Assembly: GCA_020854065.1 (NCBI GenBank)
Contig: JADZGF010000003.1
Location: 96,913-160,912 of the forward strand
Length of the DNA: 64,000 nt
Source: Candidatus Nomurabacteria bacterium
GTDB taxonomy: Bacteria > Patescibacteriota > Minisyncoccia > Phycocordibacterales > SBAW01
Reading direction: 5' to 3'
The notes beneath the pieces were generated by a model. It searched no databases. It worked only from the letters and a program-made list of their open reading frames with translations, and had not been told where the DNA came from. A program made the position numbers and the translations under genes. Positions within the stretch are counted from its first letter, which is position 1. Every line of letters begins with the position of its first letter. Positions 3,776-56,761 of the stretch are shown here, piece after piece.

Positions 3776-4390
3776 ATGAAATTTTTTAGTGATCATACGC
3801 CACGGAAGATCTTTGTGCTCGTCGGCCACCCCGACGAGTCGGCAACGCTCACGGCTGAAATGGCGCTTTTGTATGAGACCGCAGCCCGCAAAGCAGGACA
3901 TGAGGTGCGTAAGATGCATCTTGCGAAAATGCACTTTGATCCCATCTTGCATAAGGGATACAAAGCGATTCAGCAACTTGAGCCTGACTTAAAAACATTT
4001 CAGGACAATATAAAATGGGCCGATCATACGGTGATCCTCTATCCCAACTGGTGGTGCACGATGCCCGCACTCTTAAAAGGTCTTTTTGATCGCGCATGGC
4101 TGCCGGGCTTTTGCTTTAATATGCGCAAAGATAAGCAGGGACGACTCACGATGGGGTGGATTAAGCGGCTCAAAGGCAAAAGTGCACGGGTAATAGTGCT
4201 CTCTGGTACGCACCCACTCCTTATCCGTCTTATCTTTGGTGATTACACGAACGAAATCAAAAAGGGCATCCTATGGTTTGCCGGTTTTAAGGTGAAAGTC
4301 ACTCGCATGGGACCAACGGACACAGCGCCTGAGTGGCTTAAAAATGTATGGCGTCGCAAAATGGTGCGCATGGGCACCTTGGGTGAGTAG
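3776..4390 (+). CDS. flavodoxin-like fold NAD(P)H-dependent oxidoreductase (Flavodoxin_2 / NAD(P)H:quinone oxidoreductase family)
   Basis: KIFVLVGHP...LYPNWWCTMPALLKGLFDRA is typical of the MdaB/KefF-like Flavodoxin_2 family. Confidence 0.55.
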   Translation: MKFFSDHTPRKIFVLVGHPDESATLTAEMALLYETAARKAGHEVRKMHLAKMHFDPILHKGYKAIQQLEPDLKTFQDNIKWADHTVILYPNWWCTMPALLKGLFDRAWLPGFCFNMRKDKQGRLTMGWIKRLKGKSARVIVLSGTHPLLIRLIFGDYTNEIKKGILWFAGFKVKVTRMGPTDTAPEWLKNVWRRKMVRMGTLGE

Positions 4391-4415
4391 GAAAAATAAG
4401 GTATAGTCGTCTCTT

Positions 4416-5357
4416 ATGGCTTTAAGTATAGGTATTGTCGGTCTGCCAAACGTGGGGAAGTCCACGCTTTTTAATGCACTCACCAAAAAGAGTGTCCTCA
4501 TCGCTAACTATCCATTTGCCACGATCGATCCATCAGTCGGAGTGGTGGCAGTACCTGATCCACGTCGCGAAAAGCTTGCTGCGTTCAGCAACTCTAAAAA
4601 AGATGTACCGGCTGCGGTGGAGTTTGTGGATATTGCAGGGTTGGTAAAAGGAGCGAGTGAGGGTGAGGGATTGGGTAACCAATTTTTGCAACACATCCGC
4701 GAGGTTGATGCGATTGCGCACGTGGTACGTATTTTCGACAACCCCAACATTACTTCAACGCAGGAGCATATTGATCCGATGTCAGATATCGAGCTTATTA
4801 ACACTGAGCTTGAGTTGGCTGATTTAAATACTAAGGATCCGGCCATGCATGTAAGCAAGAAGCCGGTGCTCTATGTGTTGAACAAAGAAGCAGGCGGACA
4901 TAATCTTGATGAAGTAAAAGATGGCCGATGGGAGCGGCTTATGGAATTTTTGGCTGATAAAAAGTGGGTAATCGTTGATGCGCATGTTGAGCACGAGCTC
5001 AAAGACTTAGGAGGAGATGATAAACAAAGTTTTCGCCAAGAGTATGGGGTATTTGAGGACGGTATCAATGATTTGATCCGCACTGGCTACGAACTCCTTG
5101 GCCTCATCAGCTTCTTTACCACCGGTGAAGATGAGACTCGTGCATGGACCGTTAAACGGGGCAGCATGGCACCGCGTGCAGGTGCTGCAATCCATAGTGA
5201 TTTTGAAACAAAGTTTATCCGCGCTGAGGTAATTGAATGGGATAAATTGATTGCTGCAGGAAGTCGTGGCAAAGCGCGTGAGTTGGGACAGATTCGCACG
5301 GAGGGTAAAGAGTATGTCGTGAAAGACGGCGACGTCATTGAGTTTTTGCACGGATAG
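4416..5357 (+). CDS. ychF: redox-regulated ATPase YchF (Obg-like P-loop GTPase family)
   Basis: GIVGLPNVGKSTLFNAL P-loop, FATIDP switch region and C-terminal TGS-like region (KDGDVIEF). Confidence 0.85.
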   Translation: MALSIGIVGLPNVGKSTLFNALTKKSVLIANYPFATIDPSVGVVAVPDPRREKLAAFSNSKKDVPAAVEFVDIAGLVKGASEGEGLGNQFLQHIREVDAIAHVVRIFDNPNITSTQEHIDPMSDIELINTELELADLNTKDPAMHVSKKPVLYVLNKEAGGHNLDEVKDGRWERLMEFLADKKWVIVDAHVEHELKDLGGDDKQSFRQEYGVFEDGINDLIRTGYELLGLISFFTTGEDETRAWTVKRGSMAPRAGAAIHSDFETKFIRAEVIEWDKLIAAGSRGKARELGQIRTEGKEYVVKDGDVIEFLHG

Positions 5358-52222: not shown

Positions 52223-52894
52223 CTATTTCCTTTTCTTCTTTGCGCGTGGCTCTGGCCACTCCATTAATCCTGCCGCTTTTATTTCAATCTTGTTTGCTTT
52301 GCGCAAAAACTTTTCCTGATCTTTGGGCAGAGCAGGGTAGTGGGGCACCGTGTCGAGTCTCTCGCCCAGCCAATCAAGGTCGCCTCCCGACCACCACTTT
52401 TTAGGATGGTACGCGGTGAGACTAAATGGTTTGGAATATTCAAGCATAGTCTTGCGGCCACCGTTCCGATCATTGAGCGGCCAAAAATATTCATGGAAAT
52501 AACTCATGCATAATTCGCGTACTGTTTTATACACTGGGTCTCGCCAGCGCAAGACCGGATAGTTTGTCTTACTTATCGCACCCCAGTATCCGTTTTGCTG
52601 AAACGGTGCGATGACGTGATCGAGATCGTACGCTGCGGATCGTAGATCAATTAAAAGAGGTTGCTTGCCGTGATAGGCGAGGGCAGCGGCAGCTAAAACT
52701 GCCCCCTCAATGCAATGTGCTTTTTTAGTAGCAAGAACTTGAGACGGATTTTGGATAGGGTCCCCTATTGGAGCAAAATTTTCGGGGAAGTGGTCTAGGA
52801 AGTCCTGAATCTTAATTGGCGTCGATAATTTTTTTAACGTGGCGCGCTCGGTGGGGGAAAGAGTAGAAATTAATTTTTTTTGATATTCAGTCAT
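52223..52894 (-). CDS. hypothetical protein with candidate Cys-His catalytic pair (papain/transglutaminase/NAT-like fold?)
   Basis: KKAHCIEGAVLAAAALAYHG ... DLDHVIAP. No confident family assignment. Confidence 0.45.
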   Translation of the reverse strand: MTEYQKKLISTLSPTERATLKKLSTPIKIQDFLDHFPENFAPIGDPIQNPSQVLATKKAHCIEGAVLAAAALAYHGKQPLLIDLRSAAYDLDHVIAPFQQNGYWGAISKTNYPVLRWRDPVYKTVRELCMSYFHEYFWPLNDRNGGRKTMLEYSKPFSLTAYHPKKWWSGGDLDWLGERLDTVPHYPALPKDQEKFLRKANKIEIKAAGLMEWPEPRAKKKRK

Positions 52895-53101
52895 AGGGTT
52901 GGGAAGCCGCTTCGCTCAAGGTCATAAGGGTCGCACAATATACATTTTCCGACCCTTATATCCTTTAACACTAAGGGGAGCCTTTGAACCTCGGCTCCCG
53001 CACTGCTGCTTCCCTCCTTGTATTCTACTCCAACCTTGAGGTGTTCTTTTTGTCTGTATTTTTATTTCTCTCTGTTCCCTCTAGTGCTGGTTGCAGGTTT
53101 T

Positions 53102-53149
53102 TAGCCGAGTTCCCGAGATTTGTTGTATTCAAAGGGTATCTAGCCGAGT
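53102..53149. promoter_or_regulatory. direct repeat TAGCCGAGT (x2, 39 nt apart) plus CCGAG/CTCGG inverted repeat in a 330-nt pyrimidine-rich divergent intergenic region
   Basis: Seen at about 53102-53110 and 53141-53149. Sits upstream of the TIR-like gene (+) and the 52223..52894 gene (-). Confidence 0.25.
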
Positions 53150-53226
53150 CCTTTCTTTTTCTCGGTTAAACGGGGGAGGCGCTTCCCTATTTACCATACG
53201 CATGGACTGAGATACCGTATGTCTAT

Positions 53227-54504
53227 ATGGCACGTACAGTATTTTTTTCTTGGCAGTCGGATACGCCACCCGCTGTGGGACGTCGTTTTATTGAAGATAT
53301 TCTGACAGAGATCTGCGCCGGTGTATCAGGAGAGACAACTGTCGATGATTCTCCACGCGACAACCTATTAGTCGATAGCGATACTAAGAACGTTGCGGGA
53401 CACCCCCCAATATTTCCAATCATACTAGATAAGATTGATCGTTCCGCGGTCTTTGTTGCAGATTTAACAGCTGTGGGCGTGCGAAACAACGGCTCAGGGC
53501 TAATAGCCAATCCAAATGTACTTATCGAATACGGTTACGCAATAAAGACACATGGGTATGAACGGATAGTCTACTTACTTAACACAGCGTACGGGGAACC
53601 AGGTAAATTTGGAGAGAATCTTCCTTTTGATCTACGGCACGCACGTCATCCAATCACTTTTCATCTTCCAAACAATGCAACAAAAATAGCCGCACAAAAA
53701 GAAAAGGCGAGACTCCTCCCTCTTCTTGAGCGCGCAATACGCGCAAGCCTCACCAAAACCCCAACGGACGAGAGGATTGAGCAACCTTCTTATCGTGAAA
53801 GAAAGACTTGGATTGACCCGTCCCGCTTCCGTGCGCCAGGTATAGAACTGGGCATAAAGGATGATTGGTTTTTCAGTGAAAAGAAAACTCAAAAAGTCTT
53901 CCTGGACGAGGGTCCTGCCGCTTGGTTGAGACTCATACCAACTCTCAGCTCAGAGAAGAAATTTCGCACAGCAGAGTTAAAAAAAATCATTCAAGGCCAA
54001 TCCGGAGCCAGGTTTCCAACCTTGATTGATAGGGGTGGTGGGTATGATTACGTCCGGGCCGAAGATGGGATGGGTTTATACTACTCCGTTGGTCAAGACA
54101 CAGATGATTTAGTCAGAACTCCTACTGTTGCCTATATGTTCAACACTGGAGAAATCTGGAGTATAGATACTGCTCGGCTTAGTTACGGCCAGAATATTCC
54201 TTTTTTAGAAGAGGAATTTAAAGCCTCCCTCGAGGCGTACGCGAATACCTTGGCAAGTTTGGGTATACCTGGACCTTATAAGTGGAAAGTGGGCATGACG
54301 GGTCTAAAAGACAAAAAAATAAGTATGCCTCCACCTGCGCCGGGAAAGGGTTATATATCAAATACTGGCCCCACCTGTGTCACTGATACTATAGAAATGG
54401 AAGGTGTCTATCAAACCGGCCAAAAGTCCGCAGATGCACTCAGGCCATTTTTCGAAGAACTCTTTGATCAGTGCGGAATGACTCGTCCTGCGCATCTCCA
54501 ATAA
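53227..54504 (+). CDS. TIR-like/SLOG-type (ThsB/DUF1863- or NDT-like) N-terminal domain fused to a roughly 290-aa uncharacterised C-terminal domain; candidate defence/signalling protein
   Basis: Begins RTVFFSWQSD (cf. TIR betaA F-x-S-x-x-x-x-D). ILDKIDRSAVFVADLT ... NPNVLIEYGYAI matches the conserved-Glu motif of TIR-like and nucleoside 2-deoxyribosyltransferase-like folds. The C-terminal domain has no recognised motifs. Confidence 0.5.
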   Translation: MARTVFFSWQSDTPPAVGRRFIEDILTEICAGVSGETTVDDSPRDNLLVDSDTKNVAGHPPIFPIILDKIDRSAVFVADLTAVGVRNNGSGLIANPNVLIEYGYAIKTHGYERIVYLLNTAYGEPGKFGENLPFDLRHARHPITFHLPNNATKIAAQKEKARLLPLLERAIRASLTKTPTDERIEQPSYRERKTWIDPSRFRAPGIELGIKDDWFFSEKKTQKVFLDEGPAAWLRLIPTLSSEKKFRTAELKKIIQGQSGARFPTLIDRGGGYDYVRAEDGMGLYYSVGQDTDDLVRTPTVAYMFNTGEIWSIDTARLSYGQNIPFLEEEFKASLEAYANTLASLGIPGPYKWKVGMTGLKDKKISMPPPAPGKGYISNTGPTCVTDTIEMEGVYQTGQKSADALRPFFEELFDQCGMTRPAHLQ

Positions 54505-54582
54505 AAACGGACTTTGTATCTATTCCCATGTTTTCATTCATACAAAAACTCCCCCATTTCTGGAGGAGTCTTTGTGTAGGAG

Positions 54583-55185: not shown

Positions 55186-55875
55186 TTAGGCCACCTGGGG
55201 CACTAAACCTGCGAGCGCCCGGAGTGCATGGGGGAGAAGTTCCTCCATCCGCTTCTCTTCCATCCAGACTTTGACCGCCTCATCACCAATGAGGAGGTAG
55301 TCCTTCCAGAAGTCGCCCTTTTCTTGGAGCAGAGACGAGAGAGACGGCGGCCTGCCCACAAAGGAGTGATAGACGCAGAAAAGGTTGTCTTTGTGCACGT
55401 CCTTCTCTTCAAACGGAGCAAAGTGGCCGTGCGGATGGACGAACCCTTCAATGTAGGCTCCGACCGGAAGCGTCAGCATATTGAAGGTATGATCCTTCCG
55501 AAGGATGAGGTTGGGACCACTGAGTATGCCCATGCGATAGGCTTCTCGTTCCTCCGTATCCCAGCCGAACCCAAAGCGGTGGCGGGTACATTCGCGCGAA
55601 GGGTAGCAGATAAGTACCAGCTCCCCTGTCCTTCCCTCCATGGCGGCTTCAACGGCGCGACATCGATCTTCAAGCTCAGGCCAGTAGCCGGCGTAGGAGA
55701 TAACCAGGTCGCGGAGCCGATCGCCCGTGCCGACACCCGCCGCAACCAACGCACGGAGTTCATTACTCCGTCTATTGATCTGCTCATCAATTTCTTTGAG
55801 CCGGGCGTGTACGTCTTCTTTTTGCTTGCGGAGCCCTTCCAGGCTATTGATAAACGTCTTGGCAGTTTCGTTCAT
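55186..55875 (-). CDS. hypothetical protein (coiled-coil N-terminus); fully overlapped by antisense ORF 55228..55914
   Basis: Codon third-position pattern (gaa/gag, aaa/aag, GC3-rich) looks coding on the - strand. No family recognised. Confidence 0.4.
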   Translation of the reverse strand: MNETAKTFINSLEGLRKQKEDVHARLKEIDEQINRRSNELRALVAAGVGTGDRLRDLVISYAGYWPELEDRCRAVEAAMEGRTGELVLICYPSRECTRHRFGFGWDTEEREAYRMGILSGPNLILRKDHTFNMLTLPVGAYIEGFVHPHGHFAPFEEKDVHKDNLFCVYHSFVGRPPSLSSLLQEKGDFWKDYLLIGDEAVKVWMEEKRMEELLPHALRALAGLVPQVA

Positions 55876-55948
55876 CGCACCCTCTCTGTTGGAACAATGC
55901 TAGCGCAAGCGTAGCAGAATACGATATCTTGGTAAAGATAAAGAAATA

Positions 55949-56022
55949 CGGGCTGTAGTATACCGGTAGTACGCATGCATGGGGTGCATGTAGACCGGGT
56001 TCGATTCCCGGCAGCCCGACCA
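55949..56022 (+). tRNA. tRNA-Pro (anticodon GGG)
   Basis: Hand-folded cloverleaf: acceptor CGGGCTG/CAGCCCG, U8, D-stem GTAT/GTAC with GG in loop, anticodon stem CATGC/GCATG, loop AU-GGG-GU, T-arm CCGGG-TTCGATT-CCCGG, discriminator A, encoded CCA. 74 nt. Confidence 0.8.
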
Positions 56023-56269: not shown

Positions 56270-56761
56270 ATGTGGCCTAGTGATATCGTGTATCTCCAAA
56301 CGATCTTCAGTATCGTGTTCTATGTATTTGGTATTGGAGCCGCTATTGTTGCCTTCGCTTCGCTTCGGGCTAATCGACAAAATCAGCGCGAAGCCAACGC
56401 AAGAAGAGCGTATCTCGACTACGCACGACTTGGGATCGAATACCCAGAATTTGCTTTCCCTCGACATCTTGAAATAAATCTCGAGAAACAAACGATAAAA
56501 GAAAGTAGGCTGGAATTCGAACGATACGAATGGTTCATATCGATACTTCTTGGGACTGTTCGATTCTTCCTCGAGTCGACAAGCAGGAAAGGAATGTGGC
56601 GCAAGATGATGATCTTACAACTTGCGTACCATTGGGAATATCTCGACAAGTATCGGAATGAAAAGGAATACCTAAAGCAGTGGGCTTTAGAATTAAAGTC
56701 TGAGTTTAACGAAGCAATAGCCTTAGGAAAAAGGTTATATCCACCCAACCGAACCACATAG
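56270..56761 (+). CDS. AT-rich hypothetical membrane protein (N-terminal TM, coiled C-terminus)
   Basis: AGGAGG SD. IFSIVFYVFGIGAAIVAFASL TM. Lower GC than the surroundings. Confidence 0.45.
   Translation: MWPSDIVYLQTIFSIVFYVFGIGAAIVAFASLRANRQNQREANARRAYLDYARLGIEYPEFAFPRHLEINLEKQTIKESRLEFERYEWFISILLGTVRFFLESTSRKGMWRKMMILQLAYHWEYLDKYRNEKEYLKQWALELKSEFNEAIALGKRLYPPNRTT

Follow-up and report, generated by a model that had tools for sequence, protein, structure and literature searches.

The gene described here, which we refer to as the TIR-like gene, lies within a window of 64,000 nucleotides (the whole stretch of DNA analysed) on contig JADZGF010000003.1 of a Candidatus Nomurabacteria assembly. 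An earlier reading of the same DNA, made from the sequence only, had reported an open reading frame of 425 codons with the motif RTVFFSWQSD near its start and a second motif about 100 residues further on; all three are present (Table 1), and the second motif, NPNVLIEYGYAI, begins 92 residues past the start of the first. The gene can be taken as real: a word-indexed search gave 752 or more homologues that are full-length (~410-440 aa), the 48-sequence family alignment has 36 invariant columns, and there is an orthologue of 97.8% nucleotide identity that differs by seven synonymous and five non-synonymous substitutions. This orthologue occupies the same place in a conspecific metagenome-assembled genome (GCA_964591995.1; 95.2% nucleotide identity over 9.7 kb), where it appears as two genes of 279 and 144 aa; the possibility that it is a pseudogene was rejected, as the split is an artefact of a stretch of N in the scaffold. 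The homologues are without exception unnamed or annotated as "hypothetical" or "nucleotide-binding protein," so that the protein is undescribed in the sense of belonging to no named family, although its relatives already have entries under these labels. In outline, a TIR/NDT-like N-terminal domain is followed by a helix and linker and then by a new alpha+beta domain.

Table 1. Features of the TIR-like gene and its surroundings (positions in the window).
Feature	Position	Strand	Basis
CPR-C4 gene, upstream neighbour	52223-52894	-	
Strong hairpin/palindrome of the CPR-C4 upstream region	52918..52965	.	Fold z-scores -4.6 and -4.3
Upstream non-coding DNA that probably arrived with the TIR-like gene	52966..53226	+	Comparison with the Kaiserbacteria locus (L094)
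TIR-like CDS, complete, 425 aa	53227..54504	+	ORF list; at least 752 full-length homologues; 48-sequence alignment; AF2 model, pLDDT 86.5
N-terminal domain, aa 1-176, flavodoxin-like TIR/nucleoside 2-deoxyribosyltransferase-like fold; presumed N-glycosidase (NADase-type) effector	53227..53754	+	
Beta-1 motif RTVFFSWQSD, aa 3-12; F6, S8, W9, Q10 invariant	53233..53262	+	Alignments
NPNVLIEYGYAI motif, aa 95-106; N95, N97, V98, E101, G103, A105 invariant	53509..53544	+	Alignments, AF2 model
Glu101, presumed catalytic residue, start of helix 96-109	53527-53529	+	Invariance and AF2 model
C-terminal domain, aa 186-425, two-lobed alpha+beta fold, presumed sensor/regulatory module	53782..54501	+	
tRNA-Pro(GGG), the only one found	55949-56022		ARAGORN and Rfam

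The direct neighbours of the gene encode CPR-C4, a core Candidate Phyla Radiation protease (PMC9108980), and an SLT-like protein. CPR-C4 assigns the window to Parcubacteria/Kaiserbacteria-like bacteria. A syntenic locus in a Kaiserbacteria genome (GCA_009691465.1; L094) has the conserved order L27 - p139 - DUF454 - RNase T - tRNA-Pro - AIRS - SLT-like - CPR-C4 - ABC2, with a gap of just 127 nt between the SLT-like and CPR-C4 genes and no TIR-like gene at this junction. Because it is absent there, the TIR-like gene together with ~260 nt of upstream DNA looks like a single-gene insertion, or else has been lost from the relative; the inserted segment would span approximately 52966-54550. The comparison also bears on two suggestions made from the sequence. 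The SLT-like neighbour, proposed as part of a functional unit, keeps its place beside CPR-C4 in the Kaiserbacteria genome, where the TIR-like gene is missing, and belongs to the backbone. Integration beside tRNA-Pro finds no support either: the tRNA gene is 1,444 nt downstream of the TIR-like gene with two genes between, and the conserved SLT-like gene separates them. The reported lack of an adjacent ThsA-like SIR2 or Macro partner was borne out, since Pfam and PADLOC searches found none in the flanking genes.

The intergenic region upstream of the gene (52895-53226, 332 nt) had been read as a promoter region of its own, ~330 nt long, with a direct and an inverted repeat. The gap itself is real, but its hairpin belongs to the backbone gene CPR-C4 and not to the TIR-like gene, as CPR-C4 of the Kaiserbacteria genome is likewise preceded by a related ATATTGTGCGAC.CTTAT element. 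No Rfam family was found in the 332 nt, and a sigma-70 scan gave no sigma-70-like site on the plus strand upstream of the gene. The direct repeat TAGCCGAGT occurs twice (53102-53110 and 53141-53149) and is at chance level, given that 20% of shuffles of the region contain an exact 9-mer repeat of some kind and that the second copy carries two substitutions in the 95%-identical relative. CCGAG and CTCGG are both present upstream; as 5-mers they are trivial. Neither repeat can thus be upheld as regulatory.

The TIR/NDT-like N-terminal domain

The AF2 model of the protein (mean pLDDT 86.5) has a beta-alpha-beta N-terminal domain, and Foldseek matched this domain to the TIR of SfSTING (E 3.8e-5), to SPARTA TIR-APAZ, to DNPH1 and to NDTs. 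The predicted three-layer alpha/beta fold with its parallel sheet is superposable on those of the TIR/NDT flavodoxin-like superfamily (clans STIR and Nribosyltransf), which is the outcome that the sequence-only reading had anticipated for structure prediction. In structure the domain is as near to the nucleoside/nucleotide hydrolases (MilB, NDT, DNPH1) as it is to TIRs, and on the evidence of the model it sits on the border between TIR and NDT. By analogy we presume that it is an N-glycosidase, with NAD+ or, less likely, another nucleotide as its substrate.

At the level of sequence the relationships are more distant. Residues 89-118 match PF10137 (CAP12-PCTIR_TIR/Pycsar TIR) at 14.2 bits (E 0.045), below the gathering threshold of 24.7 bits; 45 of the 48 homologues match the same family at E<0.1, the best at 3.3e-5, and one protein with a related N-terminal domain scores 26.5 bits. 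Judged from these scores, the family is a divergent sister clade of PF10137 and not a clear member. The protein has no match in PADLOC-DB 2.0.0 (2023; E<=1), NCBIfam or PHROGs; PDB sequence searches with the N-domain profile and with a single PF10137-positive homologue gave no matches, and comparison of the N-domain profile with a canonical TIR_2 domain (hhalign) gave no sequence-level relation. Nitroreductase matches of the full-length profile in the PDB were discarded as spurious (E>0.1).

Glu101 is presumably the catalytic residue. In alignments it shows no variation across the 48 family members or across 18 N-domains drawn from mixed architectures, and together with N95, N97 and the FSWQ motif it is kept even across other architectures; it falls inside the stretch aligned to PF10137 and opens a helix in the model. 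At 30-49% identity, the N-domain precedes eight or more C-terminal regions that are unrelated to one another, encoded on plasmids, prophages and chromosomes, in proteins where PF10137 alone is detectable and the remaining regions have no Pfam match. The carriers include E. coli IncF, Providencia/Proteus MOBH and Sphingobium plasmids, as well as IMG/VR viral contigs and Alphaproteobacteria. As far as these sequences indicate, the N-domain is itself a mobile module.

The C-terminal domain and its interchangeable heads

The remainder of the protein had been described as a 290-aa domain that could not be recognised. It is indeed without a match in Pfam (2025), NCBIfam, PHROGs and PADLOC, but its length was overstated: in the AF2 model a long helix and a low-confidence linker (aa ~153-208) precede a folded domain of ~220-240 aa, hereafter the C-domain. 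Its conserved motifs are ARFR, WLRxxP, AEDGxG, TGEIWSxD, PYxWxAG and LxPFF..CG..RP. Pfam, a PDB profile search and structural comparison gave no significant match to any enzyme family, and structural comparison gave no SAVED, STING or cNMP-binding resemblance; a weak resemblance to AdoMetDC-like and TBP-like folds was seen. The C-terminal region of the Sphingobium N-domain protein is unrelated to it (hhalign with the C-domain profile).

A HMMER profile of the C-domain, run exhaustively on 1.84 billion cluster representatives, matched 886 of them at E<=1e-3, 525 of which reach E<=1e-10, so that the domain defines ~900 clusters at 50% identity. Most of these have the architecture of the TIR-like protein, many being N-terminally truncated fragments, and about 15 of the best 150 bear a different, longer N-terminal region. 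Pfam assigned the alternative heads, all above gathering thresholds, as TIR_2 (P0248, P0290), TIR_2/SEFIR (P0274, P0297, P0298, P0315), PNP_UDP_1 (P0257), dCMP/cytidine deaminase (P0260, P0304), caspase (P0282), Hypoth_Ymh (P0262), which we take to be a HEPN-type domain, Schlafen AlbA_2 (P0241) and HTH_3 (P0317). In PADLOC, the bSEFIR model recognises the SEFIR heads with E-values of 1e-67 to 1e-71, and effector models recognise those of the PNP and caspase type. The relatives with PNP and deaminase heads are likewise solitary, being found among transposases and Cas1, or adjoining a TIR-WD40 protein.

A constant domain behind interchangeable heads that destroy nucleotides, RNA or proteins is a familiar signature of a sensor or regulator in prokaryotic conflict systems. 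Given its fusion to so many effector heads, we presume that the C-domain is the shared sensor or regulator and the N-domain the effector that is swapped.

Distribution and proposed function

Relatives of the TIR-like protein are found in 473 of 185,579 GTDB species genomes, distributed over at least 10 phyla, and some genomes have two copies. The taxa represented are Patescibacteria, Acidobacteriota, Alpha-, Beta- and Gammaproteobacteria, Desulfobacterota, Nitrospirota, Verrucomicrobiota, Planctomycetota, Actinomycetota, Dependentiae and Bdellovibrionota; culturable carriers include Methylobacterium phyllosphaerae, Duganella, Gluconacetobacter liquefaciens and Nitrospirillum. Their settings vary. 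Many loci, including the one studied here, are flanked by housekeeping genes; one homologue accompanies a type I R-M system, DUF2130 and a serine recombinase, one is inside an integrative/conjugative element, and one is on a phage contig, where the small terminase and replication-type genes flank it and it is read from the other strand. Of the plasmid matches, 56 of 68 are on conjugative plasmids. On a Ruegeria plasmid an AbiEi-AbiEii pair directly precedes the homologue, the stop of the pair overlapping its start, and a Phaeobacter plasmid carries a homologue with the same AbiEii-adjacent annotation. By this distribution, and by its absence from the syntenic Kaiserbacteria site, the gene is accessory, as had been proposed, and mobile, and is not part of the core genome.

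When all ORFs within 4 kb were clustered across 80 loci, no conserved neighbour family emerged, the commonest being a large serine recombinase at six loci. Among the 116 immediate neighbours no Pfam or PADLOC family occurred more than twice, and no SIR2, Macro, SLOG or TM effector recurred. The neighbourhoods thus agree with the earlier expectation that the gene has no partner. At loci L001/L002 and L003, small ORFs that follow the homologues were considered as partners and rejected, being mutually unrelated.

We propose, with a probability of about 0.55, that the TIR-like gene is a self-contained one-protein conflict system, most likely of the anti-phage abortive-infection type, with the C-domain as sensor and a TIR/NDT-like effector that uses Glu101. 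In the resting state the enzyme would presumably be held inactive. Binding of an infection cue by the C-domain, be it a phage protein, a nucleic acid or a nucleotide-derived ligand, would switch the protein on, and oligomerisation, which other TIR effectors undergo, would probably accompany this step; the TIR/NDT-like head would then cleave NAD+, or less likely another nucleotide, and depletion of an essential nucleotide would stop the growth of the infected cell. What speaks against this reading is that the PF10137 score falls below its threshold and PADLOC, NCBIfam and PHROGs give no match, that the N-domain is no closer to TIRs than to nucleotide hydrolases, so that NAD+ is a candidate substrate only, and that many loci have housekeeping flanks. 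The central call of the sequence-only reading (a TIR-like head, an unrecognised tail, no partner, a candidate for single-protein defence) was right, and the idea of single-protein defence is strengthened because the C-domain swaps effectors; the defence role, like the substrate, the trigger and the mode of activation, is what we infer from these features. A more far-reaching version, which we put at somewhat below even odds, would make the C-domain a previously unnamed infection-sensing module of a large one-protein immune family whose warheads, the PF10137-like TIR among them, are freely exchanged. Here it would control a nucleotide-depleting suicide switch for a genome-reduced CPR bacterium, and the head might act not on NAD+ but on a different nucleotide, in the manner of a MilB/DNPH1-like (d)NMP hydrolase.

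Other explanations account for part of these observations. In ordinary metabolism, for nucleotide salvage or nucleoside modification, the protein could act as an N-glycosidase or transferase of the NDT/MilB/DNPH1 type that its C-domain regulates, and could serve a nucleotide-scavenging CPR bacterium. A salvage enzyme would, however, hardly show so patchy a distribution (473 of 185,579 species, in many phyla), be missing from a syntenic relative and be carried on plasmids, an integrative element and a phage, and caspase, Ymh (HEPN-type), SEFIR, TIR_2, PNP and deaminase heads on the same C-domain would make no sense in this role; we regard it as unlikely. Heads of this kind, or at least the caspase, Ymh/HEPN-type, PNP and deaminase ones, are also non-signalling terminal effectors, and that the C-domain accepts them in exchange argues against a Thoeris-like signal-generating TIR (a ThsB analogue) whose product would turn on an effector encoded at another locus of the genome. 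Such an analogue is very unlikely given also the lack of a conserved neighbour in 80 loci, with no SIR2, Macro, SLOG or TM effector recurring beside the gene, and the systematic Thoeris study explicitly put stand-alone TIR proteins aside as probable NAD+-depleting effectors.

A toxin, either directed against other cells or belonging to a toxin-antitoxin/addiction module that stabilises mobile elements, would fit the prevalence of conjugative plasmids among the plasmid matches (56 of 68) and the toxin-antitoxin genes that adjoin some loci (AbiEi/AbiEii, and RelE/ParE close to the N-domain relative in E. coli), and NADase toxins are known. Yet the sequence has no evident signal peptide or secretion-associated domain, no small neighbour recurs that could be an antitoxin or immunity protein, and a large conserved non-catalytic domain is better suited to sensing than to delivery, which leaves this explanation improbable. 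The roles of the two domains might also be reversed, so that the C-domain would be what acts, as an enzyme or by binding nucleic acid, while the N-domain would serve assembly or sensing only. Invariant R235, D280, E309 and W311, at least 90% conservation of R200, R202 and E328, the weak AdoMetDC-like and TBP-like resemblance and the many different C-terminal regions with which the N-domain combines would all be compatible with this; but every alternative N-terminal partner of the C-domain is a known catalytic effector, the N-domain retains an invariant Glu motif of the kind that active TIR/NDT enzymes have, and the C-domain has no significant enzyme-family match, so that we consider such a reversal quite unlikely.

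Should the one-protein conflict system be confirmed, the C-domain would represent a new type of sensor in bacterial innate immunity, to which at least nine effector chemistries are already wired, so that one trigger would have many read-outs. The stand-alone TIR-like proteins, a class as yet little explored, would gain a further family, and the Patescibacteria/CPR, in whose small genomes few defence systems have been recognised, would gain one more. Because the N-domain lies on the border between TIR NADases and nucleoside/nucleotide N-glycosidases, its substrate would bear on the evolutionary path from nucleotide hydrolases to immune enzymes that cleave NAD+.

Comparison with known systems

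In the literature we found no named system with the architecture of a TIR-like domain followed by the C-domain, only the analogues Swarozyc/DUF4062, Thoeris and Metis. With respect to CAP12 and PycTIR, the PF10137 effectors of CBASS and Pycsar, the protein differs in its score (14.2 vs 24.7 bits); the flanks of the gene contain no CD-NTase or Pycsar cyclase, a PycC-type model is matched by only two of the 116 immediate neighbours of the family loci, and, unlike the sensors of these systems, the C-domain includes no SAVED, STING or cNMP-binding domain. Thoeris ThsB is set apart by its effector, as no ThsA-type effector (SIR2-SLOG, Macro, TM or others) is found beside the TIR-like gene or in the 80 related loci. 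NDT, MilB and DNPH1 are small single-domain metabolic or biosynthetic enzymes, whereas the TIR-like protein adds a domain of 240 aa, has a mobile and patchy distribution, and has no sequence-level match to any PDB chain.

The bSEFIR system (PADLOC PDLC03957) is reportedly a single-gene defence in which a SEFIR domain with a C-terminal domain depletes NAD+. The likeness lies in the plan, a single polypeptide in which a STIR-clan effector at the N-terminus precedes a region that is not catalytic. The TIR-like protein itself, however, has no PADLOC match (E<=1), and its SEFIR-headed relatives match the model, which has 412 positions, only over 37-203, where the SEFIR domain lies; since the matches are limited to this part, the C-terminal half of bSEFIR is not the C-domain described here. 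By analogy, TIR-STING, TIR-SAVED (CAP12), bSEFIR and Swarozyc/DUF4062 are the functional counterparts of the protein, which falls outside each of them as they are defined.

Swarozyc/DUF4062 is a stand-alone TIR-like NADase activated by a phage protein, the portal, with an auxiliary domain needed for defence and a patchy distribution of the HGT type (bioRxiv 10.64898/2026.05.01.722283). DUF4062 is not matched by the TIR-like protein (Pfam, E<=1), nor is it among the only six Pfam families matched by any of the 48 members (E<=0.1), and the auxiliary region of Swarozyc is a helical stalk, in contrast to the two-lobed alpha+beta fold predicted for the C-domain. Both are nonetheless stand-alone TIR-like proteins placed between the TIR and NDT families, patchily distributed and with an auxiliary domain behind the head, and in both a Glu lies near residue 100: the catalytic E97 in Swarozyc and the presumed catalytic E101 here.

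Local surroundings of the TIR-like gene

The closely related locus of the public MAG GCA_964591995.1 (L093, contig CAZQDX010000021.1, 1146-2625) carries the orthologue of the TIR-like gene, which is split in the annotation into one gene for 279 aa and another for 144 aa. We rejected the reading of this split orthologue as a pseudogene: the two-gene call is an assembly or annotation artefact, caused by a 10-N scaffold gap together with 6 extra bases at the position corresponding to 53817 in the window.

Upstream of the TIR-like gene lies the gene for CPR-C4, a protease conserved in CPR whose structure has been solved (PMC9108980). A strong hairpin (52918-52965, z -4.6) is situated 25-70 nt upstream of the CPR-C4 start and is partially conserved in one relative; its role may be in the regulation of CPR-C4.

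The neighbourhood of tRNA-Pro(GGG) is a second variable spot, as seen by comparing window positions 55186-56022 with 3897-5178 of the syntenic Kaiserbacteria locus, L094. The window has a 229-aa gene of unknown kind here, and its tRNA-Pro and RNase T gene are oppositely oriented with a gene for a 163-aa protein between them, whereas in the Kaiserbacteria locus the two are co-oriented and followed by an AIRS-domain gene. The 163-aa protein is matched by the PADLOC model Drt1b|RTasTM (E 6.9e-17) and, judging by the name of that model, would be the small membrane component that accompanies a defence reverse transcriptase. No reverse transcriptase gene adjoins it: it is flanked by tRNA-Pro and by the gene for an RNase T-type exonuclease. 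The protein has no tblastn match in the syntenic Kaiserbacteria locus.

Coordinates of the genes and loci discussed (L-numbers in the table denote loci with relatives of the TIR-like gene or of its N-domain)
Feature	Locus	Position	Strand	Accession	Remark
CPR-C4 gene	window	52223-52894	-		upstream neighbour of TIR-like gene
229-aa gene, unknown	window	55186-55875			tRNA-Pro(GGG) neighbourhood
163-aa protein gene	window	56270-56761	+		one N-terminal TM helix; PADLOC match
Closest homologue	L001	8001-9290		GCA_041643395.1	54% identity
tRNAs upstream of closest homologue	L001	7296-7366, 7829-7904
Phage-contig homologue	L095	5989-7242		IMGVR_UViG_3300036819_000331	full-length; 37% identity
Ruegeria plasmid locus	L008	3252-6266		NZ_CP065363.1	AbiEi, AbiEii, full-length homologue
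E. coli pETEC_35 N-domain protein	L010	3656-4483		WP_000993597.1
Sphingobium plasmid N-domain protein	L011	4001-5659			full ORF 552 aa
Providencia plasmid N-domain protein	L012	3974-4981		WP_052219384.1

Phage, recombinase and tRNA settings of homologues

The flanking genes of the closest homologue all differ from those in the window; a tRNA-Asp is found 97 nt upstream of its start, with a tRNA-Met further upstream (~630 nt). The homologue on the phage contig is encoded on the strand opposite to the genes for portal, Mu-F and both terminase subunits (small and large), where these border on replication-type genes; this is a typical moron position. A large serine recombinase adjoins the TIR-like gene in six of the 80 loci (including L013, L017/L005 and L006), and in some lineages the gene may be carried by a small mobile cassette.

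Relatives on plasmids

In Enterobacterales and Sphingomonads, conjugative plasmids also carry the N-domain, recognizable by FSWQS...NPNV..E.G, there joined to quite different partner regions. On E. coli pETEC_35 it stands as a domain at the C-terminus of a 275-aa protein encoded near RepA and RelE/ParE, and on the Providencia plasmid a MobH relaxase is encoded close by. The Sphingobium gene appears to be mis-annotated, since the CDS in the record begins 333 nt downstream of the start of the full ORF.

Full-length homologues are present on roseobacter plasmids. The Ruegeria protein (~30% identity to the TIR-like protein) is encoded downstream of AbiEi and AbiEii, its start lying 4 nt before the stop of the AbiEii toxin gene; this overlap, with AbiEi upstream, suggests a three-gene operon of AbiEi, AbiEii and the TIR-like homologue, and a second plasmid, from Phaeobacter (CP104102.1), likewise has a homologue annotated next to AbiEii.
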